NCBI GenBank assembly: GCA_964471165.1
Contig: CAYYEX010000003.1
Coordinates: forward strand, 1-54,761
Reading direction: 5' to 3'
From: an uncultured Candidatus Saccharibacteria bacterium
GTDB taxonomy: Bacteria > Patescibacteriota > Minisyncoccia > Phycocordibacterales > UBA2100
Length of the DNA stretch: 54,761 nucleotides
The position numbers and the translations under genes were made by a program. Below the pieces are notes generated by a model. The model saw only the letters and a program-made list of their open reading frames with translations, did not search any database and was not told the DNA's origin. Shown one piece after another: positions 2,320 through 22,679 of the stretch. The number at the start of each line of letters is the position of its first letter. Position 1 is the stretch's first letter.

Positions 2320-2368
2320 AGCAAAAGATATGAATAGACAGTATAGCAAAAACCAATTCTCGCAGCAG

Positions 2369-4117
2369 CTACCAACTCCCACCGCCACCGCCACCAAAGC
2401 CGCCGCCGCTTGAACCACCACCTCCAGAGCCACCACCTCCCGATGTTGGAGATGCTGTCATCGATGCTACCGAGGTCGACATATTACTCATATCGTCAGC
2501 GAATGCGGTGGCTGTGAATACGGGATACGCACCTCCCGCATACCAACTCGGCGGTTCTTTATAGAGCCCCTCAAACTCTTTTGCCCACGCAGCCGATACC
2601 CCGAGTACCATGGCATAGGGAAGAAGTTTTTCGAACAATGCGGGCGACTTCTCTGGTGCATTGTGAAAATCGAGCCGGTCTTTTTCTGCAATCTGGAGGT
2701 AATCTTTGAGACCGAGAATGTGTTCTTTAGTGAGTGCTCCCTTGTGCGTTTTTGCGGGCATTATCATCCCAAAAAAACCAATCACACCGGCAGATATAAC
2801 CGCCGCAATAAACGCCACCCCTGACTCGATTGCGATAGCCAGGAACACGCCAAGCACGAGTGCAAAGACAGTCAAAACGATAAATTTTATTCGTATCGCC
2901 GTTGGGTTCGCACGGAAGTAGCCTCGAGCGACCACTTGTATGCCCACGATGCGCTGGATTTCTTGGAGTCCACTATGCAGGTCTCGACTTTCCGAGAGCT
3001 CGACACTCGTAACACTTTCCTTTTCTCCAAACAGGGCTTGAAGCAGCGCCACTTCGTCTTTTGAAAGAGAATCATCCGCAGCCTTCAATTTGTCGAAGCG
3101 GTATGTGGTCGAAGTAAAGACCGCGAGCGTGGTCGAGTCCTCCCGTGTGATTTTTAGAAATCCTCTCACGGCAAGACGCACAATCGTTGCGGAAACACTC
3201 CCTGGCGTTACTCTCAAATGTAAAATCTCTGACATTGTTGCTGGTGACATGTCATCTGGTGCGTCGTATTCGGGAATGATAGTGCCCCGACCCTTGGCAT
3301 CTTTTCCATGGAGCCTCCAGTATCGAAAGAGGACAAAAAATACTACTACGGGCACGAGCAAAATCAGATTGTTTGCAATTGCCCGCAATATAATGAGCGC
3401 CTCCGATGGTGGAGCAACGATTCCCTTTGGCCATCCAACGGATACTGTGAGCCCTTCCCCAGGTGGCAAAACTCGACCAGTTTGAAAATACCACTCGGTC
3501 CCGTCAGCAGAAATTGCGCGCAATGATGCACAAGGCTCGCTTGAACCAAGCGCTCCCCGATAGCACGCTGCCTGCGTGCTCGACGCCGGTGCATACACTC
3601 GAGCGCTCGAGCTTGCGATACTAAACGTCCAACCATTTCCCGTAACATTCCAGTAGAGTTCATCATACTCGTCAAAAAAACCGACCACGTCGTGTGCCAC
3701 ATAGGTAATCTCGTACGTTTTCTTGCCCGTTACGAGCACATCGGGGTCGCCAATCTTTATGCGCAGATTGTCTCCGTTTTTAAACGACTCAAACATGATT
3801 GGCGAGAACTTTCCGTCGACGACCACAATATTGTCGATGGTAACGCTCCGCCGTGAGCCGCTGGCGTCCTTGTAGATAATGGGAATATCCCGGTAGATGC
3901 CGTGGAGCTTGTCAGCACCGAAGTCGTAATGAATTGTCTCGACTACTTCTGCTGAGCCATCGGGTCGGACATGTATTGATGCTAAGAAACTATCGATAAC
4001 ATCGCCGTGCGCGAACAATGGCGTTACTGCGACGAAAAGTACCGAAGTGAGAGCGACGATAAATCGCAAAATATAGGAGTGAGCGCTATTCGGAAGATTC
4101 CGTGTTTGGGGTTCCAT
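2369..4117 (-). CDS. DUF2207-type membrane protein with C-terminal Gly-rich tail
   Basis: The chain has an N-terminal signal/TM segment, a ~230-aa extracytoplasmic domain, a TM cluster and a terminal GGGGSGGGGSSGGGFGGGGGGSW. The architecture and the adjacency to lemA are typical of DUF2207. Start taken at ATG 4117 (MEPQTRNL...). Confidence 0.65.
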   Translation of the reverse strand: MEPQTRNLPNSAHSYILRFIVALTSVLFVAVTPLFAHGDVIDSFLASIHVRPDGSAEVVETIHYDFGADKLHGIYRDIPIIYKDASGSRRSVTIDNIVVVDGKFSPIMFESFKNGDNLRIKIGDPDVLVTGKKTYEITYVAHDVVGFFDEYDELYWNVTGNGWTFSIASSSARVYAPASSTQAACYRGALGSSEPCASLRAISADGTEWYFQTGRVLPPGEGLTVSVGWPKGIVAPPSEALIILRAIANNLILLVPVVVFFVLFRYWRLHGKDAKGRGTIIPEYDAPDDMSPATMSEILHLRVTPGSVSATIVRLAVRGFLKITREDSTTLAVFTSTTYRFDKLKAADDSLSKDEVALLQALFGEKESVTSVELSESRDLHSGLQEIQRIVGIQVVARGYFRANPTAIRIKFIVLTVFALVLGVFLAIAIESGVAFIAAVISAGVIGFFGMIMPAKTHKGALTKEHILGLKDYLQIAEKDRLDFHNAPEKSPALFEKLLPYAMVLGVSAAWAKEFEGLYKEPPSWYAGGAYPVFTATAFADDMSNMSTSVASMTASPTSGGGGSGGGGSSGGGFGGGGGGSW

Positions 4118-4272
4118 TTTTTTCTTTCTCTTCCTTTTCTTGCAGCGCCTTCTTGAGTGCATCTACAGACATCCGTCCGAAGTCGGGTTCAGCCTGCGCA
4201 TCCGTTTCACTCTTTCTTTCTTTTCGCTTGTCAGGTCCGTTTATATTCATGGCTCGTTCAGACATGACTTCT

Positions 4273-4833
4273 TTAGAACTGTACTTTTACTGGTTCACGT
4301 GCGGCTGTTTCATTGTCGGCAAGCGCAAAAAACTCACGTGTCTTGAATCCAAACATGTTCCCGACGATATTTGTTGGGAACTGTTCGATTGCGTTCTGGA
4401 GTTCCTGCACGACGCCGTTGTAGAATCGACGCGCTGCCTGAATTTTGTTTTCTGTGTCGGAAAGCTCACGCTGCAATTCTACGAAGTTGGAATTTGCCTT
4501 GAGATCCGGATACGCTTCCGACAGAGCGAACACGGATTTGAGTGCCCCGGTGAGCATGTTTTCAGCTGCTGCATGCTCTTCGACAGTTTGTGCACCCATC
4601 GCCTTTGTGCGCGCCTCGGTGACTTTTTGCAGCGTACCCGCCTCGTGCGCAGCGTAACCCTTTACTGTTTCAATAAGATTCGGAATCAGATCGTATCGTC
4701 GCTTCATCTGCACGTCGATATCGGACCATGCTTCCTCTGTGCGGTTAGTAAGTTTTACGAATCGGTTGTATACCGCTACTCCGTAGAGGGCGATAAGCAC
4801 TACAGCGCCGATAATTATATAGAGTGTTGTCAT
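4273..4833 (-). CDS. lemA: LemA family membrane protein
   Basis: Single N-terminal TM segment, then YNRFVKLTNRTEEAWSDIDVQMKRRYDLIPNLIETVKGYAAHE, which matches the LemA signature region. Start taken at ATG 4833 (MTTLYIIIG...). Confidence 0.8.
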   Translation of the reverse strand: MTTLYIIIGAVVLIALYGVAVYNRFVKLTNRTEEAWSDIDVQMKRRYDLIPNLIETVKGYAAHEAGTLQKVTEARTKAMGAQTVEEHAAAENMLTGALKSVFALSEAYPDLKANSNFVELQRELSDTENKIQAARRFYNGVVQELQNAIEQFPTNIVGNMFGFKTREFFALADNETAAREPVKVQF

Positions 4834-4839
4834 GGCATG

Positions 4840-4868
4840 AGTATACCCCCCTGAGATTTGACCCACAA
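4840..4868 (-). promoter_or_regulatory. Candidate sigma70-type promoter TTGTGG-17nt-TATACT, 6 nt upstream of the lemA ATG (possible leaderless mRNA)
   Basis: Minus-strand reading of 4868-4831 is TTGTGG gtcaaatctcagggggg TATACT catgcc ATG. The spacing was counted directly. Confidence 0.35.
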
Positions 4869-4928
4869 CATGTGCCACGGCGACAATGATGTGTATCTCA
4901 GCGGGCAGACCGAATCCCACTCAGGAGA

Positions 4929-7900
4929 CTACTTGACGAGCACTTGTACGGAACCCGTCGCGTATGCCCCCGTGCCGTTCGTACAATAGATAGTATAGGT
5001 TGCCTTTGCAGTGAGCGGTCCAACGGTAAAGCTCGTATCCGGCGCCCCAATCGCAACTTGCTCAGTCTGTGTTTTGAAAGCACGGCACGCAGTGGCATTT
5101 ACACTTGTCCACGTGATGGTGCTGCTCTCCCCCGTCAATATCGGATTCGGTTGTGCTGATACTTGGACTGATATCGGACCGCGCACGAGAGGCTGCGTTT
5201 GCGTCGGCTGTGCTGGCTGCGGATTGAGCATCCCCGAAATCCCTTTTAAGAAACCTGAAAGTGCAGACATGATGCCGTTGAATGCACCTGCTCCACCGCC
5301 ACCACTCGGACTTGTGCCGGGTGTATTTGGTTGCGGCGAAGGGCTCGGAGACGGACTTGGATTCGGGTTTGGTTTTGGAGTATCCGTTCGCGTCTGAGGC
5401 TGTGGCTTTGGTGCTTCTGTTTTCGGTGTATCTGTTTTGGGGGGTGTTTTTGGAGTCGGTGGTGGCGGAAATACATCAGGCTTTGTTTCTGTTGGATACT
5501 TTTTCACGTCTGGGACAGCAGGGCCAGGAGTAACGTCCGGCTTGTTCGTCGTAATTGTTGAACCGATTTTTTCTTCTCCCGCGGGGGTTTTCGCCGGTGT
5601 GTCCGTGTTCGGGTTTGACGGCAATACTGCGTAGAGACCGCCTCCGCCAAGTAAGCCTCCGGCCCACCATTTTGCTTTACTGAACCACGAGCCTAATCCT
5701 CCGCCTCCTGAACCTGACCCTCCACCCCCGGTAACACCGCCCATTCCATTTGAACCAACACCGCCGATTGTGGGAGTAGTGCCAAGCGTTGGTGGTGGAA
5801 CATTACCTGGCTCTACCTGCTCAGCTGCAGCAGGCGGAGTTGTTGGAATTGGTGTTGGCGTTACTGCTGACGTTGCGGGCGCTAGGTTTTCAGTGGTAGT
5901 GACAGGAGATGTGTTCGTGGGCTGCACAGGTTGCGTCGTGTCTGGCGCGGCATTTGCCGTACCTGTTACTCGTTTTACCGTTGCATTGGCGTCGTTGCGA
6001 TACTCACTATCGAATGCGTAGTTAAACAACGCTTTCGGGAACGTAATTGCTGCTTTTACTCCAAGGTTCAAGAGTGGCATCGTAACGTATGGGTTCGAGC
6101 CGTCGACCGCCCACATCACGCCCGAAATGCCACCGGTCCATGCAAGCGCGTGAAGATTTGAGAAAAATCCATTTGTCGGCAGGAATGCCGAACGAACCAC
6201 GGACCAGACCATACCCCCGGCACTCCATCCCTGCGGGGTGGTTGGTTGTGCAGCCTCTGGAGCAGCCTCCGGTGTAACCGGTGCTGGTGTAGATGGTGCA
6301 TTTTGAGCAGGCACAACAACTTCTTCCGGAGCAACATACGGCTCAACACCCGTGACAGGCTCCGGTACAGCTGAGCGGAATCGAGTCCACACCGACTGTT
6401 CCGCGCGCCAATCCTGATATGCTTTGGCATTTATATTGGCAACCTCCTGCAGTGAAAATGTTTTTGCGCCTCCGTTCTGAGCAGCATCAAGACCAGCCCA
6501 GAATGCGTTCAGTTCATTGATATTCTTGGTCACGCTACCAGAACCATCAGCACGAACTGCGTCCTGGCGAACAGATGGAGAATTTTGTCCGCTCGGCGCT
6601 ACGTATGCTTCGCGAGGAATGAATGTTCCCTTTTGTCCCGCCTCTACCGCTGCCTTTGCGAGTGACTGCGCTGCATCAGTGAGATTTACCGCAGCAGATT
6701 TTGCCCGCTCATAATATGTTCCACTTGGATTCAGAACATATCCTTTTCGTGCAATGTCGGCATCTGTCAGCACTCGGTTAGAGAGTAACTCTAACTGCTG
6801 TTTCGTTACCCTATCAGGAAGACTGTCTGTCGTGATAACGGTATCAATGAGTTCATTCATCGCAGTTTGATTTGCGACAACCTCCTGCTCTGACGTAAAC
6901 CATGTCGCAGGAAACTGATACACGTCTCCGATACCGTTATTTGCCGTCATGCTCCCCGACACATTTACATGTTTGAATATTTCCTCTGAAGGCGCCATTA
7001 CACGTACGAGCACACTTTCCGGCACGTTTTTGCCGTACGAAATAGCAATGTCCGGACTATTGGAGAAAAACTGATCGCGGTAAGGACTTTGATATGCCCT
7101 ACTTATTCCGCGGTATAGGTACCTATATCCATCAGGGGCTTGTTCGCTTTGCAAACCAGTTATCATCTGCGGCGTAAGTTCCCGAATCGGGATTGTCTCA
7201 ATCGATTTCAGAGGAGAGCCGCTCGGTACGGAATGTTGCATGTACGGAACATCGGGTGTCGAACGCGCTTGTCCAGAAGTCGTCTCTACAATTGGTTCTG
7301 CGGCTTTTGCTGCTGCGGGCGTGTCCACTTCAACAGGAACAACAGGTTCTGCTTCTGCAATCGCGATTTTTGCAGGGGCTTCACTTCCAGTAATTGCTCG
7401 GTACTGTTCTTCGGTTATCACGCCTTCTGCCAGGAGCTCTTTCGTTCGCGCACGAATTTTACTTTCGACACTTGAAGAATACTTGAGTTTCTGTAGGTCC
7501 TCCGGGGGCATTTGAGAAATGTTCTCAACGCCACGTGAGTTATCAATCGCATCAATGCGCACTGTGCCTTCCGCGCTCAACGTTTTGGCAATTTCAAGCG
7601 AGCGCTTATACGTAGCTATAAAGACCTGGATTGGAACAACACGTCCCGCATCAATCGAATTACCGTTCATGCGAGAAATAACCCCGTTTTCCCATGCATC
7701 AAGTGGATCGCGATATACGTATTCAACCACTGGAATTTTTCCGGCCGCCTCTATTTCTGCAATTCTCGCGCGTGCCGCATCCACATTTGCAACAGAGCCG
7801 TCCATCGCAGCTGCGACCGTTCCATCAAGAAGTCCCTCAAACTTAGAGACTGTTGAACTCTTGCCGGCTCCCGGTCCTCCGACGAACAACATTGCGTATT

Positions 7901-10900
7901 TCCCTTCGTTTTGGAGCGCCCGTTTCCAAACCTCGTCGGCGAGTTCGCCGGAAACCTTTTGTACCGCTCCGGAATTTGTTCCGACGTAACCAATGTCTTT
8001 AAATAGAAGTCGCGCGAGGTCGGGATTTGCTGTCTTGTTGCCGAACAGCGATTGATACTGACTTATGAGCGCGTCTTTTTCGGCAAGATACTTCGCAATA
8101 GAGGCTTCCTGAAGAATCGCGTCATCCCCCGTCAGCTTCGCCCGCGGGAAGTTTTTGAACGCATCGGTTTGCGCTATCGGGTCGTTGAGGTATCCGTTGC
8201 GCACGTCTTCAATATTCTTTGGTGTAACGGGTTCTGTTTCTGGGGTTGCCGCCTCTTCACGCGCCTGGCTTGCGATTATTTCACGATAGTCGTCGAGCGA
8301 AATTACACCATGGTCGAGCATTTGTCCGGCAATACTTTCGGTTTCAATTTCCTCCGCTTGCGCCGACTGCGCAGTATTCGGCGCAGACTTAGACTGAGTA
8401 CGGCCAAGCAAACTACCAACTCCTGTAATGACGTCGTTGAAGGCTTTTGCGATTGCATTTGCAATCGCTGCATCTGCCTTCAGTAGATCGATATTTCCCT
8501 TGTTTGAAATGGTCTCCGGTGCTGGCGCATTGACCGTCACAGTACCTCCAGTTCTCGTATCCAACAGTGCGCTGCCCCTTCCTTGCATTGATGTCGGCGC
8601 GGGAGTAGGTGCCGGTGCGTTAACCGTAATATTTCCTGTATTACGCGTATCAAGTTTTCCGCTTCCCTGTCCTTGGATTGTGGGTAGCGGTTGTGCCGCC
8701 TGCGGTGCAAACGGCGTTGGAGCCGGCGGCGCGCTTGGCGGCGAATCCACGCGCGCGATTGCTTGTTCTCCCTGACCTTCTTCGCGAGTTCGCGTGTTGT
8801 TTGTTGGCTGTGGTTGCGGTGTTCTGTCCCCCGGTGTCGGTGCAGGATTCGCAGGAGTTGGATTCGCTGGTACTGGATTTGCGGGGGCCGGGCTGGTTGG
8901 TGCGGGATTGGCAGGAGCTGGGTTTACCGGAGTAGGAAGTGGCGCAAACTCAGGTGAAGGCGGCTGTATCATCGGCTTAAACGAAGTGAGTGATTCAGAA
9001 ACTGTTTCCTCTACTAGTGGGCCTTCAAACTCTGCGTACTGCCCCGGATTCACCGCGCTATGTACAATGTTGCCCCAGTTTATTTCTCCTTTATAGTCTT
9101 TCGAGTCAGCGACCCGATTCCAATCAGGACGAACGCCCAGCATGAGCATTGACTCATCAAAGGTGGAGTTCACAATGCCGTCGTAAAACGCATTCGCACG
9201 CTGCGCGCCACTGGAATGGCCATCAAACACCGGATTTGGTGCATTACTGCTGTACTGCGCTCTAAGCAAATCATCCCCCAAAGACCCAATAGCGTACCGA
9301 AGAGTCTGGAAAACATCTTTCCCTACCAGACCGGAGCCAACGAGCATATTTCCTGCCAGCGCATCCGCCTGGAGTTCTTCAATGGCACCCGGAGTTGTGA
9401 ATATTGCCTCAGATAGAGGCGGCATTACCTTGTAGTCAGCAAGCTTAACGCGAGAAGCTTGCACGGTACCCGTCATGTAGGCCACGTAGTGTCCAAGCTC
9501 GTGCGCCACCACATATCGCACAAGTTCACCTGGCGTATTTGAGTAATAGCCCTCCATTTTTCGGAGCTGCGCGATGTCCATGACAATTTTCCCCGACCCT
9601 ATGTCGAAGTGCGACCCGATATCGGTGAACTTCGGTAAAGCAGTTGTCGTATCAACAATAACTAATTCCGCTCGACGATACTGTCCCCCGTTTCTCCTTG
9701 CCTGAGTTTCAAGATAATCCTGCATTCTTTCAAAACTTGTACTTATTTCAGCGCGAACTGCTGCACTACTCATACTTGCAAGACGTGGAAGCGGCGTTGT
9801 ATTTGGCAATCCCGCAGGTGTATTTACCGGCGCTGGAATTATTTCTTTTGCAGTTTGGTCGGTTTGTCTGCCGAGTCGGTAGTTCAGCTTCAAATCTTCA
9901 AACTCTTTTTGTGTTCGCACAGGTGCAGGCTGCGTCGGTTGAACGGTTGGTTGTACTTTCGACGCAGTGCCGGGGGCTTCCAAGTTCAATCCTCGGGTAA
10001 CCTCTCCCCTGGGAATCGATCCGGTCCATGTTTCGGGGCGATCGTACCCCTCCATCGGGTCTGCCGCGGGAAACGGTGTCTGCGGAGCAGGAAGGTCCGG
10101 CCCCCTCGTAACCTCTCCCTTTGGAACACCTCCTGTTGTCACATCCAATGGAGGTGTCAGGGTTTCGGGTTTCGCCGAAGTAAGTGTCCCGCTCTCCGGT
10201 GCGTCAACTTTTTCCGGCGTTTCAGCACTTGGCACTTTCGCGTTATCTGCCATGTCTTTCATCAACTGTGAGCCAGCCTCCTGCCCGGAATTCGCAACGG
10301 GTGGAACGTACCCTGTTTTCAACGACCAGTCCGGGTTCAGATGCCCGAGGGCAAACTGATATGCATTCTTATCCATGTCTTTCCAGCGAATAGAATCAAG
10401 CTCTTCCTTTGTGAATGAAATCGTCTCTGTTTCCATCGTTGCTACGTCGTCCAACTTGTCGATCATGCTCTGAGGTAGATAGGTTCGAACACCGAGCGCC
10501 GCATACAATGCCAATTTCAATGAAATTGGACTTGCGTATGTGTATGACGGCGACGTTCCTACAAGATCGTTCGGGTACATTCTTAAATCCGGAGAAAAAT
10601 CCGGCGGGAGTGCGAGCTTGTCATCGCCTCCGGGAACCTGCTTAAATTCCGGCACTTTCTCCGCCTCTGGCGCAACTTCAATTGGATTTGGAAGTTCGGG
10701 GACTACCGTTTCTTGCGGCGTCGGTGTTGTTTCTGCGGGAGTGGTGGGCACAGGCTGTACCTCTGGCACTGGGGGTGCCTGCAGTGACTCGGGCGCTGGT
10801 GCCTGTTTCAATTCCGCCGCAGTCGACTGTTCAACTTTTTGAAGCGTCAATATGTTGGCATTCGCCGCAGATAATTCTGAGGCCAATCCCTTTCGTATCT

Positions 10901-13900
10901 TTTCAAGTTCATCTGAGTCCTCTACAGAGTCAGCTTTCGATGTTGCTTGAGCGATAACTTTTTGTGAACGCGAGAAGAGCGCCTTGCCCTGGGAACGCGC
11001 AGTGTTGAGATTTTGCTCCGTTTGATTTTTTGGTTGTTGCATCGCTGTCAACAAGTTCACGTAGCCACGCAATTCAGCCGCGAGAGCCGCATCCCCCAGT
11101 GCACGAATGTTGTTCGACAATCGTGATGCTCCGTTTGCTGCATTTCTGAGCGTTGCATGCTCAGCTGGATTCGGCGTCGTAGTCAAACGGTCAAGGAGCG
11201 CTCGCGCGGAGCCCATCGTAGTCAAATTTCTTTCCGATTGTTCAATCAGAAGCTCCTGTTTTTTTACGCCTGCAGTTTTCTGAACTATCGCGTCTATTTG
11301 CTTCTTAAGGTCTTGCACACGAGCCTGCGCACTTTTGAGAGACGTACGCGTGTCGTCTAGTTTCTTCTGAAGCGTGGAATTGCTAGAACTATTATCCGGA
11401 GTTGTTTTGGTAATCGGTTCTGCAGGTTTTTCTGGCGAGGTCGTCTCGGTTTTCGTCGGAGCTGCTGGAATCTCAATAGAGCGATTCGGGCTCGGTATAG
11501 ATGTATCTGCCTGCGGAAGATCGGCTCCGCGAGTAACTTCCCCCTTGGCAATCGGACCCTCTGTCGTTTGCGGTCGTTCGTATCCTTCCATTGCATCCGC
11601 AGCCGGGAACTGCGAACCTTCTGGAATAATCATCGGAGCCTGTGGCCACGTCGCCGTATCAAGCCGTTTGAATATTTGATTGAGCGCGAGCGTTTCTGCA
11701 AAATCTGGAGCAATGAACTGCTCAACAGGGGCAGGTGGTTTAGACGCAGTTGCCGTCGACGTGATTGTTTCTTCAGCAGGGGTTTCTTTCTTCGCGTACT
11801 GTGTCGAACCCTGCGGGAGTGTCGATTGGTAAATGCTGGCTATCTTTTCCGCAGAAAACTTATCGGTCAGTCGTACTGAGTGTTCAAGGAATGTTTTTTC
11901 GTTGACGAGCTTAATAATCTGGTCCTGATTGGTGTAATCGAGTTTCGTGTTCGGTCCAATGCCAACCGCTTTGGAAATTCGGGCTATCATGCCTGCTGTG
12001 TCGTTTTCGTATGCTGGTGAAAGCCGGTGCATCAATTTAGAAATCGTGTCGTCGCCACGCTTTATCCATTTCTGCACGTTATTGAAGTCTGCCTGAGTAC
12101 CGACTTCCAGCGACGAAAATCTTCTCGGCTGTTTACCGAGCATCATGTTTCCCGGATTATTGTTGCTGATGCCCTTACCCTTCGCCTCAACACTGGTAGA
12201 AAACGGATTGAAGTCTGGGATGATGTCGCCCGTAAACGGTTGCGCAAAAAGAAGCGACGCTGCGATTGCCGAGCGCGCGAACGCCTGAGTCACTACTTTT
12301 GGAATATTTGGAGAGATGTACGGACGTGTTGGTGCGGCGCTCACCGGTGCCTCGTCACCCAGATCTGAGGTGCGTGAGTCCGAGGCAGTTGGATTGTCAT
12401 TTGTTTCGCTCGCCGAAAGCTGACCGTTGTCGTTTACTACGCGAGTCGCAGCGTCAGCATTATCGTTTGCCGTTGCAATCGCGTCATCCGCGGTGGTTTG
12501 CGCAGTACTAAATCCAAGACGCTCTCCAATCCCCGAAACAACTCCCGAGATTCCCGAACGCAATCCCGCTGTCGCAGCGCGAATGCCACCGACGGCGGAT
12601 TTGATTTCCGAAGCAACTGCGTTTTCAACTCGAGCCACTACCGACGTTTCTGCCGTCCGTGCAGCAAGTCCAGACGCGGCTTCAGGCACGAGTGCGGGCG
12701 GAATCAAGCCCTCACGCAAAGAACCCTTCGCAATTGCCAGCGCTTCAACTGGTGATTCCGCGCCTGCGAATGTGCCCTTTGCTTGAGCTCCGATATCGGC
12801 ATACTTTGCATTTTCCGCGGCAGTCAGTTTTGAATCCCACTTCGCAAGCGCAGACTTCATTTCCGGAGAAAGATTGCTCGGCAACGACGAACGAAGCTCG
12901 TTGTACACACTACGCGCATCGGCAACTGTGGACTTAAATACGTTTTCAATGTGCGCGTCTACCGCGTTGAGTGCAGTGGTTGGTTTGATCGTTGCATCGA
13001 GATTGGACGTCTGCACATTTATGCGTTCCCCGTATTTGGCCTGAACAGCGGTTCTCTCAGCATTCGAGAGGCCCGATGTGTTCAATAGCTCTTTCAGCGG
13101 CGCGTTCGTACTTGCTTCGTTGAGTCCGCGACGAAGCGCAAAATCTCGCGCCTCGCTCAATGTAGAAGCTGTAGAAATATCGGAGGATAGTGCCAGTCGC
13201 TCGTTCAAACTCATCCCATATCCGGGCTTACTGGAGTTTGCTTGCGCTGTATTGAAAAGTCGCGCGCCGAGGCCCTCAGTACTACTATTGGCAGCGAGCG
13301 CCTTTGCAACCTCATCCTTGTACCCTTTCGCCAGCGCCCCCTGAAGCTGGCTATCGAGTGCCGCGCTATCAACTACCACATTACGCTCAGCCGCATACGT
13401 GCCACCGCCCTCTTTGGTGCGACCAACGCGACCAAGCGCCTGCACAAGCTCTTCGCGCTCAAGCTGTGCAACTTCTTTTACAATATTGCCCGCCGTATCT
13501 TTCGTCAGCTTATCGCTTTTGGTGAGGATTGTTTGCACGTAATCGCCTTTGTAATTGAAACCTTCTATCCCTTTTTTATCCACGATAAATGCTGTTTGTC
13601 GCGTTGAGGCTTCTTCTGCAAGTGAGTTAAACGATTGTCGCGTTTCCTTGCCGTTGACGTAGACTTTTCCGTCGGCGCCGTACTCGACGAGTCGTGCAGC
13701 TTTTCCTTCCCCAGCAACAGCACGCATCGCCAACTGCGCCTCCTCAAAGGCGGCCGGCGTTAATGCGACGGTGAGCGTGTTTTTTCCTTCACCGATTGCT
13801 GCCTGGGCGCGGGCGTTGGCCGTCTCAGACGTCCATGCGGTTTTTGTGCGCGTCCCATCCGCAGCAATAGTCTCAACTTCAGTGCGGAACCCATTGAGAT

Positions 13901-16900
13901 CGACGCGCGATGGCTTGATCGCAAGCACACCTTCACTTCCAATGCCCGAACGAATAAGGTTCTGTAATCCTTCGGCCGTTCCGGTCATACCACCCACGAG
14001 CACGCCCTGATTTGTTGCGTAGATATGCGTAAGCGGTGTTTCTGCTTTTGTCGTGCTCACGAACGTATCAACTTTATTTGCGCCAGCACCTCGTCCGTTC
14101 ATTTTCGCAGCTGTAAGCGGAAGCGTGGGATCCGAAAACTGCATTTCTAATTGAGGCTTTCCAAGCTTATCCGTCGGAACATACTTTTCTGCACCCGAGG
14201 CGTCGCGTACGAGCTTGTAACCATTTACACCACCATCTTTGAGTTCGAGCGTTCGAAGCACCTGCTGTGTCGTACGATCCGAGGACGAGAGTCCGACGCG
14301 CTCAAGTTCCTTTTGCGCGGCTGCATTGAATCGCACAGCACCCACCTCTCCGTTGAGGTTTTGCTCCACCAAGTACATGGGTTTGTTACTTTTTGTAAAC
14401 TCGCGCTCAAATTTCGACGCATTTGCATCAAGCATTTCGCTCATTTGCACGCGATTGCCGGCACCCGTCCCTGAATACTTTTCTACCGTGCTCGGCACTC
14501 CTTCAAAACCGTTTTCGGTTTTACGCATGCCGAGTTTTGTCATCACATTGTCGACGGCCGCTTCTTCCGCAGCAGTCACCGCTCTGCGTGAGTCGCTAAT
14601 AACAGATGAGGTTCTCGAACCAGCAAGGTTGTGCACTTCATCTACAACCGCCTTTCTCGTTTGTCCGAGGGCCTGTCTGAGCGCCGTTTGTTCCGCTCCG
14701 GTACCGAGGGAGAGACCAACTAAGTGCCCGCGCGTTTCTGGCGCCATGGCGATTACAGACGCCGTGCCGTTTTCTGACATTTTTGCTGCCGCGATAAATT
14801 CGGAAGGATTCGCGCCTTTGATTGTTTTTACGGGAGCTCCGACTTCGTTAAGAAACTGTCCGTATTTTTCTCCAAATTTCGTAACGAGATCTTGTGTGGG
14901 CGCGAGGTATTCCCACTGCGCACCCTTGCCGAGCGTAAGGCGTGTGCCGATGTAGTCGCCGATACTCACCGCACTCTTACCGAAGCTTGTTGCTGCGTTG
15001 ATTGATTTACCATTTCCCACTGCATAGAGTGCAAGACGTTGACCTTCGCTGAGCGTTTCGACACCTTCGGCAAGCGCAGTGAACTTTTCTTGGATAGCGC
15101 GCCGTGCAGCCGCACGCTCGGCAACAGAAGCGTACTTCGCGGCATTGTATGCCTCTTCAGCTTTCAAGAATGCCTGCCCAATTTCTGGTTTTGTTGAATT
15201 TAATCCTTTCGGCAATGTGGAGGCAAGCTGCGCTTCAAGATTCGCCTTTGCTTGAGCGCTTGCAGCGTCTGCGACTTCGATCTCACGGGCTGTTGCACGC
15301 CCGGCGGCCGCCAAATCTTTTTGCACGGCAGCCACATCTGTGTACGTAAACCCAATTCGGTCTTCCACCTCCTTGAGCAATTTTGCATTTGCCTCGGTGA
15401 GTTTACCTGCCTGCGCCTCAGCAAAAATTGTACGCGAGTCGCCTCCGAGTGCTGTGAGCTCACGCTCCATTTGTGGCACTACATTTTTCGTGAGCTCTTG
15501 CATTGCCGGCGCATCCGCTCGCTCTATTTCTCGAAGAGCGGCCCTGTCTGCATTTATGGTTTCTGGTGTGACACGTGCAAACAACGACTCAGACACTTCG
15601 CGCGATGCCGGTTGCCATGAAGAATTCTCAGATGCGCGCACGAGCATTGCTTCGTTGTTTGTTGCACGCGCAAGCACCTCATACTCACGACCAGCGACAG
15701 CTCGCGTATCGACGACAATGCCTGATTTGTTGAGCTCGGCTGTTGCTCTTTCTAAATTTACTTCGGCTGCTGCGACACGCGCCTGCGCCTCGGCTGCTGC
15801 AATTCGTAATTCTTCGGGAGCACTCGATCCACCCAATAACCCGGTCGTAGATTCACTTGCCGTCACGCGCTCAGCAGCTGCTGTGGCATCCATTTTTGCC
15901 ACACTCACAGCAGAGGACTCAGAAACAAAGTTCTCCACGAGGCGTGCTTCAGAGGTACTCAGTGCGGCACGCTCGGCGTTGAAGCCGAATGATTCGAATG
16001 CCGCGCGTCCGCCCGCTTTTATCGGACCATAGACGAGTTGTCCCACAATCGCCACATCAGCAACTGCAATAGCGCGCTCAACTGCACAACCGTTTAATGC
16101 GCACGTCGCCGCCTCTTTACCGTCAGCCGCAAACGCCGGCATTCCGCCATCAGTGAGTTCATTCCCCCACGCGCCAAGCGTTTGCAAACCGTGTGTTGCC
16201 GCAGCTGAAACGTCGAGCGTCAACTTAGCGGCAAGAGGGATCATGCCGTCGAAACCCGCTTTAAATATTTCGCCGTAGGTGCCGACGAGCTCGCTTCCTT
16301 TTTTCAAACTATCCGTCCATTCATGCAACTTTTTTGCGGCCGCTCCTTCAGTGTCATATGCGCGATCGACGATCTTGTCGTATCGCGAGTCCAAATCATC
16401 CAAATTTCCCGTTCGTGCGATTTCTGCATTCTCGGCTATATCGGCGCGTTCTGCCCTGAGTCGTTCGATTACGCGCTCAAGCCTACCAACTTCCGCATTC
16501 CACGCCGCCTCACCTCGAGGAATTTCGCCGTTGCCACGAAACGTAGCGGGATTCGACGCTCGTACTTTTTCGAGCTGTCTTTCCGCCATTGTAATCGCGT
16601 TATCTTTCGCCTGCTCCTCCTTTTTGATTGCCTGGTACACGTGACTCTCCGGCGTTAATCCCGCATCAAACTTTTGCTGAGCAATTATCGAGTCGCGTGC
16701 GTTGGCCGCATACGCATTGTATTCGGCGGTAAGACTCGCAACTTTCAGTTGATCCTGGCTTGAATATATTGGTCTGCCGTTACTGTCGTAACCGAGGGGC
16801 TTAATCTCACTCACCTCATCATTAAATTTCTGAGTGGTCTCGCTGAAGTTGTTCAGCATTTCCTTCGCGTTGTTGCCCTCGGGTTTTGCGAGCTGCAATA

Positions 16901-18500
16901 TTGGATCCCCTGCGTATTGAGTTTTGTACCAGTCGCCCGCTAGACCGGCAGCTTTGTTTTCGAGAATACTCGCAACGGCATTGTTTTCGATGTAGGTCTT
17001 CATCGAATCGCCCAAATCTTCTCTCATCTCCTTGGCGTCGCCCGGGTCAGCAAGCACGAGTCGGTTACCAATTCGCTCAACGCCGTAGTCATTCAAGACC
17101 TCCTGTATTTCTTTGAGGGCTTTGTCTGATTCGGAGCGTGGAACTACGGAGTCACCAAGACATCCTATGTATCCACACGTACTTTTTTGAACTGCATCGA
17201 TTTTGTCTTGAAGTGCTTTCTGTTCTGCTTGCTGCTCCGGCGTGAGTTTTGAATCACCGCCTTCTGGTGTGCCACAACTGCCCAACGTGCACACCCCCTT
17301 GTTGAGGGCGGCCAGGTCTTGCGGATTGTTTTTAAAATCAAGATTGCCCCTGTCGAGCGGATCATCAGCAACCTCGTCGCCGGCTTTGGGATTTCTAATC
17401 GCCTCGTTGTCGAGCGGACCCCCAGTGAATTGGTCCCACGCGCGCCGAGCTTCTGCGATCGCTTCCTTGTCGCCGCTTTTTACTGCAGCAGTGTAGTCGT
17501 CGCTGAGTTCTCTGAGTCGTGCGGAATCCAACTCCTCACGTTGTTTTATTGGGTCAATTTCAGGTTCACCGCCAAACGGATCTCGCCTCCATTCGTTCAA
17601 CGTATCTTGCGCATAATCTTGAACACGTTTCGAAAGGTCCGACACTTCATCGCCAATCTTTTTCCAAGTATCTGCTACAGGGTTCGTTTTGTCTGCGTCG
17701 GTACCATCTCGAGCGCCATCAGTTCCATCCGGATTTACATCAAAACCAGTTATTGGATCGGATTTGCGAGCAGCGTCGAACAGACTTCCCCCCGCAGTCT
17801 CAGTGGGAGTATCAGGCGACTCAACTTTTGGCTGTAGTGTTGCTTCTTCGCCCTTGAGCCAATTCCACAATCCGCCCTTTGCCTCGGCCTCTTTGAGTTG
17901 CTCAGCGAAACTGTTTACTTCTGGTACGGGTGTTTTTACATCGGGAACATCCTCGCATCGCCCGACGATACAGTTGCCCCAGGTATCGTATTTCGGTGAG
18001 TCATCTTGTTTCGGCTCTGTTTTTGGCTGCTCATCGGGAGTAGGACCCGGCGGTGTCGGCATGCTTGGTGGCGAACCACCTTCACCCGGCTTTGGCTCCT
18101 CTGGCGGTGGGACTGTGCCCGAAGGCGGTTCCGTTGCCGGTGCGCCGCCGGAACCCTCTGTTGGTTGGCCAGGGCATGCTTTGCCGTCACATAATCTCGC
18201 TTCACATCTTTTCTCCGCGACGCAAATACCTTTTACTTCTCCAACCCCAGCTGGATCCTCCCAACATATGCCCACTTTGCAGCCCTTTGTATTTTTTCCC
18301 TTTATGCATTTGGGTGCCTTGGAATCAGTTTCAGCAGCCTTGTTTGGCTCCATGCCGCACTCACAGTCTTTGTGGAACGGCTGACACATGTTGTTCGCAA
18401 ATCCACCCATTGCGCGAGCTACATGTGGTTGTAAAAAAAGAGTCGCAGAAAATGCAAAAAGTAGAACAAGAAAAGCGGCCGCAAAGCGACGCGTTAGCAT
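4929..18500 (-). CDS. Giant (4,523 aa) exported multidomain protein: signal peptide, Cys/Pro-rich stalk, coiled coil, SF2/SecA-like ATPase, zincin peptidase, zeta-toxin-like kinase, ART-like module, C-terminal hydrophobic anchors and Ig-like domain
   Basis: One uninterrupted ORF. N-terminus is MLTRRFAAAFLVLLFAFSATLFLQPHVARA. Motifs located by codon position are:
- ATSFGKS (K1175), DEVH (1287-1290), GMTGTA (1505), QALGRVGR (1687);
- NNPGN (~2113);
- VAHELGHYV (H3000) plus ELQADALAG;
- GGPGAGKS (K3547);
- LYRG (R3797) / SNS (3813-3815) / EQE (3871-3873);
- hydrophobic stretches encoded near nt 6060-6240 and 5620-5700. Confidence 0.9.
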   Translation of the reverse strand: MLTRRFAAAFLVLLFAFSATLFLQPHVARAMGGFANNMCQPFHKDCECGMEPNKAAETDSKAPKCIKGKNTKGCKVGICWEDPAGVGEVKGICVAEKRCEARLCDGKACPGQPTEGSGGAPATEPPSGTVPPPEEPKPGEGGSPPSMPTPPGPTPDEQPKTEPKQDDSPKYDTWGNCIVGRCEDVPDVKTPVPEVNSFAEQLKEAEAKGGLWNWLKGEEATLQPKVESPDTPTETAGGSLFDAARKSDPITGFDVNPDGTDGARDGTDADKTNPVADTWKKIGDEVSDLSKRVQDYAQDTLNEWRRDPFGGEPEIDPIKQREELDSARLRELSDDYTAAVKSGDKEAIAEARRAWDQFTGGPLDNEAIRNPKAGDEVADDPLDRGNLDFKNNPQDLAALNKGVCTLGSCGTPEGGDSKLTPEQQAEQKALQDKIDAVQKSTCGYIGCLGDSVVPRSESDKALKEIQEVLNDYGVERIGNRLVLADPGDAKEMREDLGDSMKTYIENNAVASILENKAAGLAGDWYKTQYAGDPILQLAKPEGNNAKEMLNNFSETTQKFNDEVSEIKPLGYDSNGRPIYSSQDQLKVASLTAEYNAYAANARDSIIAQQKFDAGLTPESHVYQAIKKEEQAKDNAITMAERQLEKVRASNPATFRGNGEIPRGEAAWNAEVGRLERVIERLRAERADIAENAEIARTGNLDDLDSRYDKIVDRAYDTEGAAAKKLHEWTDSLKKGSELVGTYGEIFKAGFDGMIPLAAKLTLDVSAAATHGLQTLGAWGNELTDGGMPAFAADGKEAATCALNGCAVERAIAVADVAIVGQLVYGPIKAGGRAAFESFGFNAERAALSTSEARLVENFVSESSAVSVAKMDATAAAERVTASESTTGLLGGSSAPEELRIAAAEAQARVAAAEVNLERATAELNKSGIVVDTRAVAGREYEVLARATNNEAMLVRASENSSWQPASREVSESLFARVTPETINADRAALREIERADAPAMQELTKNVVPQMERELTALGGDSRTIFAEAQAGKLTEANAKLLKEVEDRIGFTYTDVAAVQKDLAAAGRATAREIEVADAASAQAKANLEAQLASTLPKGLNSTKPEIGQAFLKAEEAYNAAKYASVAERAAARRAIQEKFTALAEGVETLSEGQRLALYAVGNGKSINAATSFGKSAVSIGDYIGTRLTLGKGAQWEYLAPTQDLVTKFGEKYGQFLNEVGAPVKTIKGANPSEFIAAAKMSENGTASVIAMAPETRGHLVGLSLGTGAEQTALRQALGQTRKAVVDEVHNLAGSRTSSVISDSRRAVTAAEEAAVDNVMTKLGMRKTENGFEGVPSTVEKYSGTGAGNRVQMSEMLDANASKFEREFTKSNKPMYLVEQNLNGEVGAVRFNAAAQKELERVGLSSSDRTTQQVLRTLELKDGGVNGYKLVRDASGAEKYVPTDKLGKPQLEMQFSDPTLPLTAAKMNGRGAGANKVDTFVSTTKAETPLTHIYATNQGVLVGGMTGTAEGLQNLIRSGIGSEGVLAIKPSRVDLNGFRTEVETIAADGTRTKTAWTSETANARAQAAIGEGKNTLTVALTPAAFEEAQLAMRAVAGEGKAARLVEYGADGKVYVNGKETRQSFNSLAEEASTRQTAFIVDKKGIEGFNYKGDYVQTILTKSDKLTKDTAGNIVKEVAQLEREELVQALGRVGRTKEGGGTYAAERNVVVDSAALDSQLQGALAKGYKDEVAKALAANSSTEGLGARLFNTAQANSSKPGYGMSLNERLALSSDISTASTLSEARDFALRRGLNEASTNAPLKELLNTSGLSNAERTAVQAKYGERINVQTSNLDATIKPTTALNAVDAHIENVFKSTVADARSVYNELRSSLPSNLSPEMKSALAKWDSKLTAAENAKYADIGAQAKGTFAGAESPVEALAIAKGSLREGLIPPALVPEAASGLAARTAETSVVARVENAVASEIKSAVGGIRAATAGLRSGISGVVSGIGERLGFSTAQTTADDAIATANDNADAATRVVNDNGQLSASETNDNPTASDSRTSDLGDEAPVSAAPTRPYISPNIPKVVTQAFARSAIAASLLFAQPFTGDIIPDFNPFSTSVEAKGKGISNNNPGNMMLGKQPRRFSSLEVGTQADFNNVQKWIKRGDDTISKLMHRLSPAYENDTAGMIARISKAVGIGPNTKLDYTNQDQIIKLVNEKTFLEHSVRLTDKFSAEKIASIYQSTLPQGSTQYAKKETPAEETITSTATASKPPAPVEQFIAPDFAETLALNQIFKRLDTATWPQAPMIIPEGSQFPAADAMEGYERPQTTEGPIAKGEVTRGADLPQADTSIPSPNRSIEIPAAPTKTETTSPEKPAEPITKTTPDNSSSNSTLQKKLDDTRTSLKSAQARVQDLKKQIDAIVQKTAGVKKQELLIEQSERNLTTMGSARALLDRLTTTPNPAEHATLRNAANGASRLSNNIRALGDAALAAELRGYVNLLTAMQQPKNQTEQNLNTARSQGKALFSRSQKVIAQATSKADSVEDSDELEKIRKGLASELSAANANILTLQKVEQSTAAELKQAPAPESLQAPPVPEVQPVPTTPAETTPTPQETVVPELPNPIEVAPEAEKVPEFKQVPGGDDKLALPPDFSPDLRMYPNDLVGTSPSYTYASPISLKLALYAALGVRTYLPQSMIDKLDDVATMETETISFTKEELDSIRWKDMDKNAYQFALGHLNPDWSLKTGYVPPVANSGQEAGSQLMKDMADNAKVPSAETPEKVDAPESGTLTSAKPETLTPPLDVTTGGVPKGEVTRGPDLPAPQTPFPAADPMEGYDRPETWTGSIPRGEVTRGLNLEAPGTASKVQPTVQPTQPAPVRTQKEFEDLKLNYRLGRQTDQTAKEIIPAPVNTPAGLPNTTPLPRLASMSSAAVRAEISTSFERMQDYLETQARRNGGQYRRAELVIVDTTTALPKFTDIGSHFDIGSGKIVMDIAQLRKMEGYYSNTPGELVRYVVAHELGHYVAYMTGTVQASRVKLADYKVMPPLSEAIFTTPGAIEELQADALAGNMLVGSGLVGKDVFQTLRYAIGSLGDDLLRAQYSSNAPNPVFDGHSSGAQRANAFYDGIVNSTFDESMLMLGVRPDWNRVADSKDYKGEINWGNIVHSAVNPGQYAEFEGPLVEETVSESLTSFKPMIQPPSPEFAPLPTPVNPAPANPAPTSPAPANPVPANPTPANPAPTPGDRTPQPQPTNNTRTREEGQGEQAIARVDSPPSAPPAPTPFAPQAAQPLPTIQGQGSGKLDTRNTGNITVNAPAPTPAPTSMQGRGSALLDTRTGGTVTVNAPAPETISNKGNIDLLKADAAIANAIAKAFNDVITGVGSLLGRTQSKSAPNTAQSAQAEEIETESIAGQMLDHGVISLDDYREIIASQAREEAATPETEPVTPKNIEDVRNGYLNDPIAQTDAFKNFPRAKLTGDDAILQEASIAKYLAEKDALISQYQSLFGNKTANPDLARLLFKDIGYVGTNSGAVQKVSGELADEVWKRALQNEGKYAMLFVGGPGAGKSSTVSKFEGLLDGTVAAAMDGSVANVDAARARIAEIEAAGKIPVVEYVYRDPLDAWENGVISRMNGNSIDAGRVVPIQVFIATYKRSLEIAKTLSAEGTVRIDAIDNSRGVENISQMPPEDLQKLKYSSSVESKIRARTKELLAEGVITEEQYRAITGSEAPAKIAIAEAEPVVPVEVDTPAAAKAAEPIVETTSGQARSTPDVPYMQHSVPSGSPLKSIETIPIRELTPQMITGLQSEQAPDGYRYLYRGISRAYQSPYRDQFFSNSPDIAISYGKNVPESVLVRVMAPSEEIFKHVNVSGSMTANNGIGDVYQFPATWFTSEQEVVANQTAMNELIDTVITTDSLPDRVTKQQLELLSNRVLTDADIARKGYVLNPSGTYYERAKSAAVNLTDAAQSLAKAAVEAGQKGTFIPREAYVAPSGQNSPSVRQDAVRADGSGSVTKNINELNAFWAGLDAAQNGGAKTFSLQEVANINAKAYQDWRAEQSVWTRFRSAVPEPVTGVEPYVAPEEVVVPAQNAPSTPAPVTPEAAPEAAQPTTPQGWSAGGMVWSVVRSAFLPTNGFFSNLHALAWTGGISGVMWAVDGSNPYVTMPLLNLGVKAAITFPKALFNYAFDSEYRNDANATVKRVTGTANAAPDTTQPVQPTNTSPVTTTENLAPATSAVTPTPIPTTPPAAAEQVEPGNVPPPTLGTTPTIGGVGSNGMGGVTGGGGSGSGGGGLGSWFSKAKWWAGGLLGGGGLYAVLPSNPNTDTPAKTPAGEEKIGSTITTNKPDVTPGPAVPDVKKYPTETKPDVFPPPPTPKTPPKTDTPKTEAPKPQPQTRTDTPKPNPNPSPSPSPSPQPNTPGTSPSGGGGAGAFNGIMSALSGFLKGISGMLNPQPAQPTQTQPLVRGPISVQVSAQPNPILTGESSTITWTSVNATACRAFKTQTEQVAIGAPDTSFTVGPLTAKATYTIYCTNGTGAYATGSVQVLVK
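8845..8934 (-). repeat. Six tandem 15-nt units inside the giant ORF, encoding (P-A-N-P-x) repeats
   Basis: Plus-strand units are GGATTCGCAGGAGTT / GGATTCGCTGGTACT / GGATTTGCGGGGGCC / GGGCTGGTTGGTGCG / GGATTGGCAGGAGCT / GGGTTTACCGGAGTA. They translate on the minus strand to NPAPANPAPTSPAPANPVPANPTPANPAP. Confidence 0.8.
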
Positions 18501-22130: not shown

Positions 22131-22162
22131 AGCTGTATTTCTGAAATGATTAACTCTTGTAT

Positions 22163-22540
22163 TTAGTTCAAGATTGCGAGAATGTCGCTTTCGCGCACGA
22201 GGAAGTGCTCGTGGTCTTCATCGATACTCACTTCGTTATCCCAACCAGAGTTGAAGATAACTTTATCGCCCACACTCACCGTGACTACTATCACCTTTCC
22301 GTCGTCACTTATGCGGCCGGGACCAACTGCAAGTACTGTGCCGAGCTTCGATTTTTCTTTCTGCGCACTATCAGGAAGGATGATGCCAGAGGCCGACTTC
22401 TTTTCCGGTAAATCGTCGCGTCGCACGAGTACGCGATCCGAAAGGGGTTGCACCGGGGCCTTCGCCTTTGGTGCGGTAGACTTCACCGACTTTTTGCTCA
22501 CTTTTTTTGGTGCTGATTTCTTCATCTTTTTCTTTGCCAT
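22163..22540 (-). CDS. groS: Co-chaperonin GroES with a ~30-aa Lys-rich N-terminal extension
   Basis: The core PLSDRVLVRR...SGIILPDSAQEKSKLGTVLAVGPGR...GDKVIF is canonical GroES. It is preceded by MAKKKMKKSAPKKVSKKSVKSTAPKAKAPVQ, with no internal Met before the core. Confidence 0.9.
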   Translation of the reverse strand: MAKKKMKKSAPKKVSKKSVKSTAPKAKAPVQPLSDRVLVRRDDLPEKKSASGIILPDSAQKEKSKLGTVLAVGPGRISDDGKVIVVTVSVGDKVIFNSGWDNEVSIDEDHEHFLVRESDILAILN

Positions 22541-22601
22541 ATGTGCTGTTTTAGCTAAATAATCCTGTTAGATAAGCGGTTTTCTACTCCGCGACGACCG
22601 G

Positions 22602-22630
22602 ATTATACATACCTATCATGGGCCGTGCAA
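22602..22630 (-). promoter_or_regulatory. Candidate groES-groEL promoter TTGCAC-17nt-TATAAT
   Basis: Plus-strand gtgcaa (22625-22630) and attata (22602-22607) read TTGCAC and TATAAT on the minus strand, with exactly 17 nt between them. The promoter lies about 60 nt upstream of the groES ATG. Confidence 0.5.
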
Positions 22631-22642
22631 TTTCGGCGTGGA

Positions 22643-22671: not shown

Positions 22672-22679
22672 TCTGCCAC

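Follow-up and report, generated by a model that had tools for sequence, protein, structure and literature searches.

A giant, predicted exported multi-enzyme protein in a variable chromosomal slot of a Kaiserbacteria-like bacterium

Patescibacteria are generally regarded as episymbiotic, and how bacteria of this Candidate Phyla Radiation (CPR) attach to, feed on or kill other cells is largely unexplained, with few candidate molecules at hand. The stretch of DNA analysed here (54,761 nucleotides, contig CAYYEX010000003.1; referred to as the window) contains at positions 4929-18500 on the (-) strand a single uninterrupted open reading frame (ORF) of 4,523 amino acids plus a stop codon, as the initial annotation had stated. 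The encoded protein, here called the giant protein, appears to combine a Sec-type export signal with a peptidoglycan glycosidase, a peptidase and two ATP-dependent enzymes, and its gene lies among housekeeping genes. What might a chain do that is apparently exported and yet carries enzymes that need ATP? We consider it probable, if only just, that the giant protein is a Sec-exported surface stalk that attacks the peptidoglycan pathway of a partner or host cell.

The slot between groEL and lemA-htpX

The loci compared were the window and L008, L009, L010/L011, L012 and L013. The gene order RNase J-SBP-SecG-groES-groEL-[slot]-LemA-HtpX is common to all of them, and in six genomes housekeeping genes flank an occupied slot groEL-[X]-lemA-htpX. 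While GroEL is 74-81% identical to the window copy across these loci, the slot proteins range from 1,246 to 7,694 amino acids, and the nearest GroEL (81%, L008) goes with the shortest slot protein. All that the slot proteins have in common is the signal peptide, a Cys-rich N-terminal module, a module with the motif NNPGN (34-51% identical between the giant protein and the occupants P0005, P0004, P0006 and P0010) and a C-terminal domain. By contrast, the ATPase and the zincin are common to the giant protein and P0002 only, and the zeta-type kinase is present in none of the other slot proteins. P0002 is the closest ATPase and zincin homologue of the giant protein and carries two PF04228-type zincins homologous to that of the giant protein; its locus reads RNase J-SBP-SecG-groES-groEL-(two small secreted Cys/Pro-rich proteins)-P0002-...-LemA-HtpX-TrpR-like. 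A metagenome scan added a single marginal locus, L005, with a protein of ordinary size.

Because positional orthologues with the same flanks vary in content, we conclude from the sequence comparison that the gene appears to be a vertically inherited, hypervariable chromosomal locus, i.e. one positional orthologue in a fixed slot. The initial annotation had described the gene as chromosomal and non-mobile, which synteny strengthens; it had not recognized the gene as one allele in a hypervariable slot. The survey of homologue neighbourhoods that it had proposed places the homologues in the housekeeping slot and not in prophages or conjugative elements.

Every slot orthologue has an equivalent signal-like N terminus ending in AxA. 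Within the Cys-rich module, residues 90-109 are 65% identical to residues 84-103 of P0005, and the same Cys-rich N-terminal plan is found in P0004, in P0006 and in a neighbouring protein of 567 amino acids. The C-terminal domain is kept in five other proteins (P0003-6 and P0010) with an invariant W and two invariant C, and a profile search gave no significant match to it in the PDB; PDB sequence searches with P0003 and P0010 also gave nothing useful.

Could the ORF be an artefact of assembly or gene calling, i.e. a chimeric join or a fusion of ORFs? The source is a short-read metagenome assembly, and the giant protein forms a singleton cluster at 90% identity, from one contig; the identical protein is recorded on a 173.5-kb contig (ENA ERZ27247837, also at NCBI). 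However, the frame is open over 13.5 kb, and a search inside the gene found neither tandem repeats nor direct DNA repeats of at least 25 bases that could cause mis-joins. GC content is even over the gene and its neighbours, and codon usage is close to that of other window genes (relative synonymous codon usage, r = 0.76), with a lower GC content at third codon positions (0.48 vs 0.56 +/- 0.05 in window genes). Moreover, the 7,694-residue homologue P0002 was assembled identically in two independent assemblies. Finally, the N- and C-terminal modules match both ends of the positional orthologues and the flanking genes are the correct ones; this agreement with the orthologues at both ends and on both flanks argues against a chimeric assembly, and we hold an artefact of either kind to be barely credible. 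All motif positions of the initial annotation were exact on recheck. In total, we conclude that the ORF is real and belongs to the chromosome of a Kaiserbacteria-like member of the Patescibacteria (CPR).

P0002 and its locus have features of their own. The protein has a Hint/intein splicing domain, which scores 37.2 bits in Pfam and ends in ..VAHNT, and a cluster of about 10 strong hydrophobic segments. Just upstream of its gene, on the opposite strand, lies an IS200/Y1_Tnp-like gene (L010 9105-9767), and L010 37432-41945 holds a haem-copper oxidase cluster (COX1, COX2, COX3, COX4_pro, UbiA), which is unexpected in a CPR genome.

Enzymatic modules of the giant protein

The NNPGN module, with its motif at residue 2114, was modelled with AlphaFold from an alignment of 45 sequences (A2), with a predicted local distance difference test (pLDDT) value of 89.9. 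The solved structure that Foldseek matched best to this model was 7q47, the Enc34 endolysin's catalytic domain (probability 1.0, template modelling score 0.65-0.67), and the matches in BFVD were phage virion proteins, including internal virion protein D. By sequence, phmmer matched the module to the N terminus of Gp29 (PDB 9vvp_L), and tblastn matched it to 258 phage records, at the N termini of internal virion protein D and of 'endolysin-domain' proteins; against plasmids, tblastn matched the NNPGN domain only. Experiments showed the Enc34 domain (PHA02564) to be muralytic; it is a glycosidase of diverged lysozyme fold that has a catalytic Glu (PMC8943055). The modelled module likewise has an all-helical fold resembling the lysozyme alpha-lobe, and a near-invariant Glu in alignment A2 corresponds to E2206, the candidate catalytic residue. 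We conclude that the NNPGN module is a predicted phage-type peptidoglycan glycosidase. The initial annotation had listed the module and had missed that it is the phage-type muramidase core of the slot family. Enc34 endolysin and the N-terminal domains of podovirus internal virion protein D have the fold and the conserved Glu in common with it, and these phage domains cut peptidoglycan during lysis or genome ejection; unlike them, the NNPGN module lies inside a cellular, predicted exported protein, at about residue 2100, and forms the conserved core in a family of chromosomal genes. A literature search for the motif 'NNPGN' returned nothing relevant.

C-terminal to this module, the motif FPAAD[AP]MEGY[ED]RP[QE]T..G.I.[KR]GEVTRG occurs at residues 2296-2330 (11511-11615, (-)) and again at residues 2790-2842 (9975-10133, (-)), with an extra GEVTRG at 2795. 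The two copies bracket a segment of about 450 residues (about 2340-2790). It is a speculation that the repeated motifs could be processing/cleavage or binding sites.

The ATPase is recognizable by the motifs FGKS with K1175, DEVH at 1287, MTGTA at 1505 and QALGRVGR at 1687. When Pfam was searched with tiles of the giant protein, DEAD matched residues 1159-1302 with 26.5 bits against a cut-off of 26, i.e. at the borderline. Residues 1101-2250 served as the query of an exhaustive HMMER search over 1.84 billion representatives, which returned few relatives of the ATPase: P0002, the partial proteins P0007-9 and the short fragments P0031, P0101 and P0111. In their alignment (A1), G.GK[TS], DE[VA]H, [ST][AG]T and Q...R.GR, corresponding to motifs I, II, III and VI, are conserved. 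With hhalign, 103 columns aligned to E. coli DeaD (E 1e-3). A second RecA domain was not detected. The structure model has a pLDDT of 42, and Foldseek gave weak matches to this poor model in which RecA1 domains of DEAD-box proteins were mixed with SecA. PDB sequence searches with the ATPase segment and with profile A1 gave nothing useful, and a scan of IMG/VR found no relative. Altogether, these observations point to a divergent superfamily 2 (SF2) ATPase that is borderline in Pfam.

SecA deserves attention here, since the giant protein could belong to the giant SecA_DEAD proteins described from Omnitrophota ('Archaeovorins' and relatives), with an ATPase that aids its own export. The motif spellings DEVH, MTGTA and Q..GR.GR are in keeping with this, as is the shared setting of wall-degrading domains in ultra-small bacteria. 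In the giant protein, an insert of about 215 residues separates motifs II and III, the place of the preprotein-binding domain in SecA; moreover, the top Foldseek match, weak as it is, was SecA (6itc_A, E 0.01). However, none of five ATPase members matched SecA_DEAD or SecA_PP_bind in Pfam at E<=10, and hhalign aligned E. coli SecA over only 28 columns of the P-loop (probability 1%) compared with the 103 columns for DeaD. In addition, a protein of 4.5 thousand residues with one strong hydrophobic segment differs from proteins of more than 10,000 residues with many transmembrane helices. We therefore consider a SecA-like motor unsupported and regard membership in the SecA_DEAD proteins as very improbable. 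For the SF2 ATPase of the initial annotation this means that the motifs, conserved in A1, stand with the DEAD family at threshold, while a likeness to SecA is not established.

Distant homologues of the ATPase are present in Firestonebacteria and on unclassified contigs (L015, L016, L004 8-14986). They are proteins of several thousand residues with strong transmembrane segments past the ATPase and a common C-terminal motif, and their genes adjoin further large unannotated ORFs. The contexts of P0007 and P0009, both on short contigs, were uninformative.

Further along the chain lie two modules that pass Pfam thresholds, in agreement with the zincin and the zeta-toxin-like P-loop of the initial annotation. 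The zincin has HELGH with H3000 and ELQADALAG at 3042, i.e. HExxH and a downstream E..QAD, and matches Zn_peptidase (PF04228) with 31.7 bits against a cut-off of 23.2; its 43 bits against NCBIfam NF050010, where the cut-off is 250, indicate family resemblance and not an equivalog. The kinase has the Walker A motif GGPGAGKS at 3541-3548 with K3547 and matches Zeta_toxin (PF06414) with 39.4 bits against a cut-off of 22.3. Its closest relative, at 34% identity (E 6e-35), is formed by the last 250 residues of UOF78922.1, a protein of 878 amino acids of a freshwater siphovirus. The kinase resembles Zeta/PezT toxins and secreted zeta-like effectors in passing the Zeta_toxin threshold and in its Walker A motif; unlike Zeta/PezT toxins, the kinase is fused inside a predicted secreted giant protein and has no epsilon/PezA-type antitoxin gene in the window. 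A literature search in a limited collection for CPR and zeta toxin returned no relevant paper. The siphovirus protein itself (MW202577.1, L017 2117-4753) is annotated as a 'thymidylate kinase', has its kinase behind a long helical N-terminal part and may be a phage-delivered kinase.

By contrast, the ADP-ribosyltransferase (ART)-like module of the initial annotation is not supported. The segment contains R3797, SNS at 3813-3815 and EQE at 3871-3873, with R and S spaced only 16 residues apart; it matched nothing in Pfam, PDB, phages or plasmids, and a loose R/S/ExE triad appears in 15% of shuffles of the giant protein. A PDB sequence search with the zeta kinase and this segment together likewise brought no useful match.

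Phages and conjugative elements encode polyvalent proteins with many enzymes on one chain (Iyer et al. 2017, PMC5512222), in which 2-15 disparate enzymatic domains are joined, a number that the giant protein reaches with its predicted ATPase, glycosidase, zincin and kinase. It resembles them in uniting unrelated enzymes, among them a helicase-type ATPase, a peptidase and enzymes of toxin type. Is it an ordinary polyvalent protein of an integrated element? The closest relatives of the NNPGN module and of the zeta-like kinase are indeed virion or large proteins of phages, and a serine recombinase gene lies beyond the tRNA-Ser gene, outside the window. Against this, the slot is filled in six genomes between housekeeping flanks, the window holds no phage or conjugation genes, and beyond these two modules no homologues were found in phages, plasmids or IMG/VR. 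The typical polyvalent anchors MuF, SNF2, DNA methylase and ART were absent from Pfam and PHROG scans of the giant protein. Unlike polyvalent proteins, for which no signal peptide is described, the giant protein has a predicted Sec signal and is encoded outside a mobile element, at a fixed locus that appears vertically inherited. The chance that it is an ordinary polyvalent protein is accordingly close to nil in our judgement.

Export, topology and possible function

The signal peptide proposed in the initial annotation has the expected pattern in residues 1-30 and counterparts in all orthologues, and it is the sole strongly hydrophobic segment of the giant protein (Kyte-Doolittle 2.17); the protein is thus predicted to carry a Sec export signal. 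Its Cys residues are confined to residues 39-805, where they form a cluster of ten and four CxxxxC loops in the stalk (177/182, 404/409, 442/447 and 800/805), and to the pair 4472/4506. The 3,666 residues between are Cys-free, where about 31 Cys would be expected from other window proteins (P ~3e-14). This distribution would suit an exported chain in which disulfides stabilise a few outer modules. The tiled Pfam search gave no match in the stalk (residues 116-1100).

Two borderline hydrophobic segments flank the ATPase. The first sits right behind the last CxxxxC loop and has counterparts in P0010, with the related motif ERA..VAD..VG, and in P0002, with IVGQ. Residues 4086-4430 contain no segment above a Kyte-Doolittle threshold of 1.2, and the giant protein has no LPXTG motif. 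Only the N-terminal segment being clearly hydrophobic, the protein's 'own anchor' claimed in the initial annotation is not supported.

How might these parts work together? A conserved scaffold consisting of Sec signal, disulfide-type Cys-rich module, Enc34-type glycosidase and small C-terminal beta domain would have grown in the window allele by accretion of a long helical stalk, an SF2 ATPase, a PF04228 zincin and a zeta-toxin-family kinase. Once exported by Sec, the chain would be displayed on the cell surface or released from it, and the glycosidase, possibly together with the zincin, would open the wall peptidoglycan of the contacted cell, be it partner or host; alternatively, the zincin may cleave the chain itself into fragments. 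By phosphorylating UDP-GlcNAc, zeta toxins block wall synthesis; because of this, the kinase, if it came to lie in the partner's cytoplasm, would extend the attack to the same wall pathway by poisoning cell-wall precursor or nucleotide-sugar metabolism. The ATPase would either reside in a cytoplasmic loop, with residues 805-823 and 2069-2087 spanning the membrane, or become active only after delivery. The load that such a protein puts on secretion and folding may be why the slot lies among secG, groESL and htpX. The surface-displayed multi-effector device envisaged in the initial annotation is retained in so far as signal, ATPase, hydrolase, zincin and kinase are predicted on one chain, while the ART and the anchor are left without support.

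Several observations weigh against a Sec-exported stalk that attacks another cell. Behind a Sec signal, the ATPase and the kinase would face no ATP outside the cell, and both segments that flank the ATPase score under the usual transmembrane thresholds. The structure model of the ATPase is of low confidence (pLDDT 42). Neither a delivery device nor a translocation domain or an immunity gene can be recognized in the window. Finally, the five shorter orthologues have no recognizable toxin, and the core function of the slot could be housekeeping.

The last point leads to the possibility that the giant protein is a housekeeping envelope protein, i.e. an exported or membrane-spanning autolysin and scaffold for remodelling the cell's own wall, in which an ATPase in a cytoplasmic loop regulates or powers the external hydrolase and the hypervariability stems from phage or immune-type pressure on a protein that is exposed. 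Every related genome has an NNPGN slot protein beside the chaperonin, SecG, LemA and HtpX genes, and the shorter orthologues without a recognizable toxin would suit such a role. So would the weakly hydrophobic segments, which flank the ATPase in both the giant protein and P0002, and the presence of ddl, glmS and an M23 peptidase gene in the window, by which the cell makes its own wall. However, the zeta-type kinase lies outside any plausible cytoplasmic loop, the flanking segments stay under transmembrane thresholds, and a range of 1.2-7.7 thousand residues at a GroEL identity of 74-81% is unusual for an autolysin. We regard this explanation as unlikely, while giving it some weight.

Polymorphic toxins used in contact against competitors, and toxins of the type of multifunctional autoprocessing repeats-in-toxin (MARTX), offer another comparison. 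Zeta-type kinases and lysozyme-like domains are known payloads of polymorphic toxins (Lipocone paper), and these systems resemble the giant protein in an exported chain with an N-terminal signal peptide, several catalytic payloads of a kind that would be of use only on or in a target cell, strong variation in content between alleles and possible autoprocessing by a zincin. Unlike them, the giant protein ends in a conserved beta domain instead of a variable toxin tip, and it has no RHS, filamentous haemagglutinin or other pre-toxin repeats and no translocation region. Moreover, no genes of a type V, VI or VII secretion system (T5SS, T6SS, T7SS) or of contact-dependent inhibition (CDI) and no candidate immunity gene were found in the window; delivery is hypothetical. 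The genes downstream of the giant gene encode LemA, DUF2207 and HtpX and belong to no known immunity family, and small unannotated ORFs exist. That the giant protein is a polymorphic-toxin-like, contact-dependent weapon against competing bacteria thus seems improbable to us.

The nearest published kind are the giant multi-enzyme proteins of ultra-small predatory bacteria, and the likeness is functional, not familial. West-Roberts et al. 2023 (bioRxiv 10.1101/2023.11.21.568195) described giant proteins with a divergent DEAD-type ATPase, peptidase and wall-degrading domains, which the statement of the initial annotation that no described system has this layout had overlooked. The 'Archaeovorins' and Dockerin-type proteins of Omnitrophota have in common with the giant protein a long single chain, an origin in ultra-small uncultivated bacteria and a proposed role at the cell interface. 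They reach more than 10,000 and up to 85,000 residues with many transmembrane helices, whereas the giant protein has 4,523 residues and one segment above Kyte-Doolittle 1.6, and unlike them it has no detectable SecA_DEAD or SecA_PP_bind. It also differs in phylum (Patescibacteria, Kaiserbacteria-like) and in having a zeta-type kinase, an Enc34-type muramidase and the groEL-lemA slot. What sets the giant protein apart is a fixed hypervariable slot with an Enc34-type muramidase core and a zeta-type kinase, without a dedicated secretion system.

A bolder proposal, tentative and on balance doubtful, is that Kaiserbacteria-like CPR bacteria possess a fixed 'effector slot' in which a Sec-exported stalk with a phage-type muramidase time and again gains and loses enzymes taken from the repertoires of phage ejection and of toxins. 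The window allele would then serve, all by itself, as a weapon used on contact or as a device for feeding, which breaches a host wall and passes ATP-dependent enzymes (SF2 ATPase and zeta-type kinase) into the host cytoplasm without a dedicated secretion machine. If true, episymbionts would have a way of delivering effectors between cells that is new. The answer to the puzzle of ATP-dependent enzymes behind a Sec signal would lie in an unusual membrane topology or in a delivery route. Whichever it is, the slot offers a concrete and comparable candidate, since it is easily found, the scaffold is conserved and the accessory enzymes differ sharply.

Neighbouring genes and further observations

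The modules of the giant protein, the genes bordering the slot and the other slot occupants are listed in Table 1.

Table 1. Predicted modules of the giant protein, adjoining genes and other occupants of the slot
Feature	Residues or length	Position	Strand	Basis or remark
Sec-type signal peptide (predicted)	1-30	18411..18500	(-)	RR, hydrophobic core, VARA/M
Cys-rich N-terminal module	39-109	18174..18386	(-)	10 Cys
Stalk, Pro-rich then Ala/Glu-rich	116-1100	15201..18155	(-)	composition, Cys positions
Borderline hydrophobic segment	805-823	16032..16088	(-)	Kyte-Doolittle 1.57
Divergent SF2 (DEAD/DEAH-like) ATPase (predicted)	1150-1720	13341..15053	(-)	
Second borderline hydrophobic segment	2069-2087	12240..12296	(-)	Kyte-Doolittle 1.22
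NNPGN module	2105-2232	11805..12188	(-)	predicted Enc34-type (PHA02564) peptidoglycan glycosidase fold
Helical segment between repeats of FPAAD[AP]MEGY[ED]RP..GEVTRG		9975..11615	(-)	
Zincin metallopeptidase, PF04228/YpfJ type (predicted)	2932-3109	9174..9707	(-)	
Zeta-toxin-family P-loop kinase (predicted)	3463-3702	7395..8114	(-)	
Globular segment with R/SNS/EQE triad	3780-3900	6801..7163	(-)	motif presence
Gly-rich weakly hydrophobic stretches and Pro/Thr-rich spacer	4086-4430	5211..6245	(-)	composition
C-terminal beta-rich domain, Cys pair 4472/4506	~90 aa	4932..5210	(-)	alignment A3
groES-groEL		20493..22906	(-)	upstream border of slot
Exported protein (predicted)	567 aa	18593..20296	(-)	between groEL and giant gene
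lemA - DUF2207 - htpX (M48)		1420..4920	(-)	downstream border of slot
P0005	1,246 aa	L008		between groEL and lemA-htpX
P0004	1,544 aa	L012		between groEL and lemA-htpX
P0006	1,870 aa	L009		between groEL and lemA-htpX
P0010	2,040 aa	L013		between groEL and lemA-htpX
P0002 (MBI5470382.1)	7,694 aa	L010 10001-33085		Ca. Kaiserbacteria metagenome-assembled genome

Pfam searches on about 40 window ORFs confirmed the housekeeping context described in the initial annotation and found no phage, conjugation, T5SS, T6SS, T7SS or CDI genes. The genes identified are secG, groES, groEL, a gene for an SBP_bac_5 protein, RNase J, ddl, glmS, metK, CofD, HhH-GPD glycosylases and an M23 peptidase. The predicted exported neighbour of the giant protein has a signal peptide, a Cys-rich part ..G.CVA...CEA, a Pro-rich part and a C-terminal THDHP motif, and matched nothing in Pfam or PDB. 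A BLAST comparison gave no significant evidence of paralogy with the N terminus of the giant protein. Similar small secreted proteins, 328 and 532 amino acids long, are encoded at the Kaiserbacteria locus.

Promoter and terminator scans gave nothing informative. The ATG of the giant gene has no Shine-Dalgarno sequence, and TACAAT six bases upstream suggests a possible leaderless start (18501-18592, (-)). The same 92-bp spacer holds a hairpin with a 12-bp stem, GTAGAGCCACAC...GCGTGGCTCTAC.

Elsewhere in the window, a SAM-I (S-box) riboswitch (35052-35152, (+)) lies directly upstream of metK (35309-36361). Three further genes encode envelope proteins: an M10 matrixin-type peptidase is split by a coiled-coil insert (42909-43841, (-)), the M23 peptidase has a PG_binding_1 domain (50076-51152, (-)), and the protein encoded at 51167-52252 (-) combines a signal peptide and a Pro/Thr-rich region with a transmembrane segment and a coiled coil. 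The window edge is occupied by tRNA-Ser(GGA) (1-86, (-)). Beyond it, outside the window, are small unannotated ORFs and the gene for a large serine recombinase (Resolvase+Recombinase+Zn_ribbon; L001 28626-29954), about 3.8 kb from the contig end; this region may be the edge of an integrated element.

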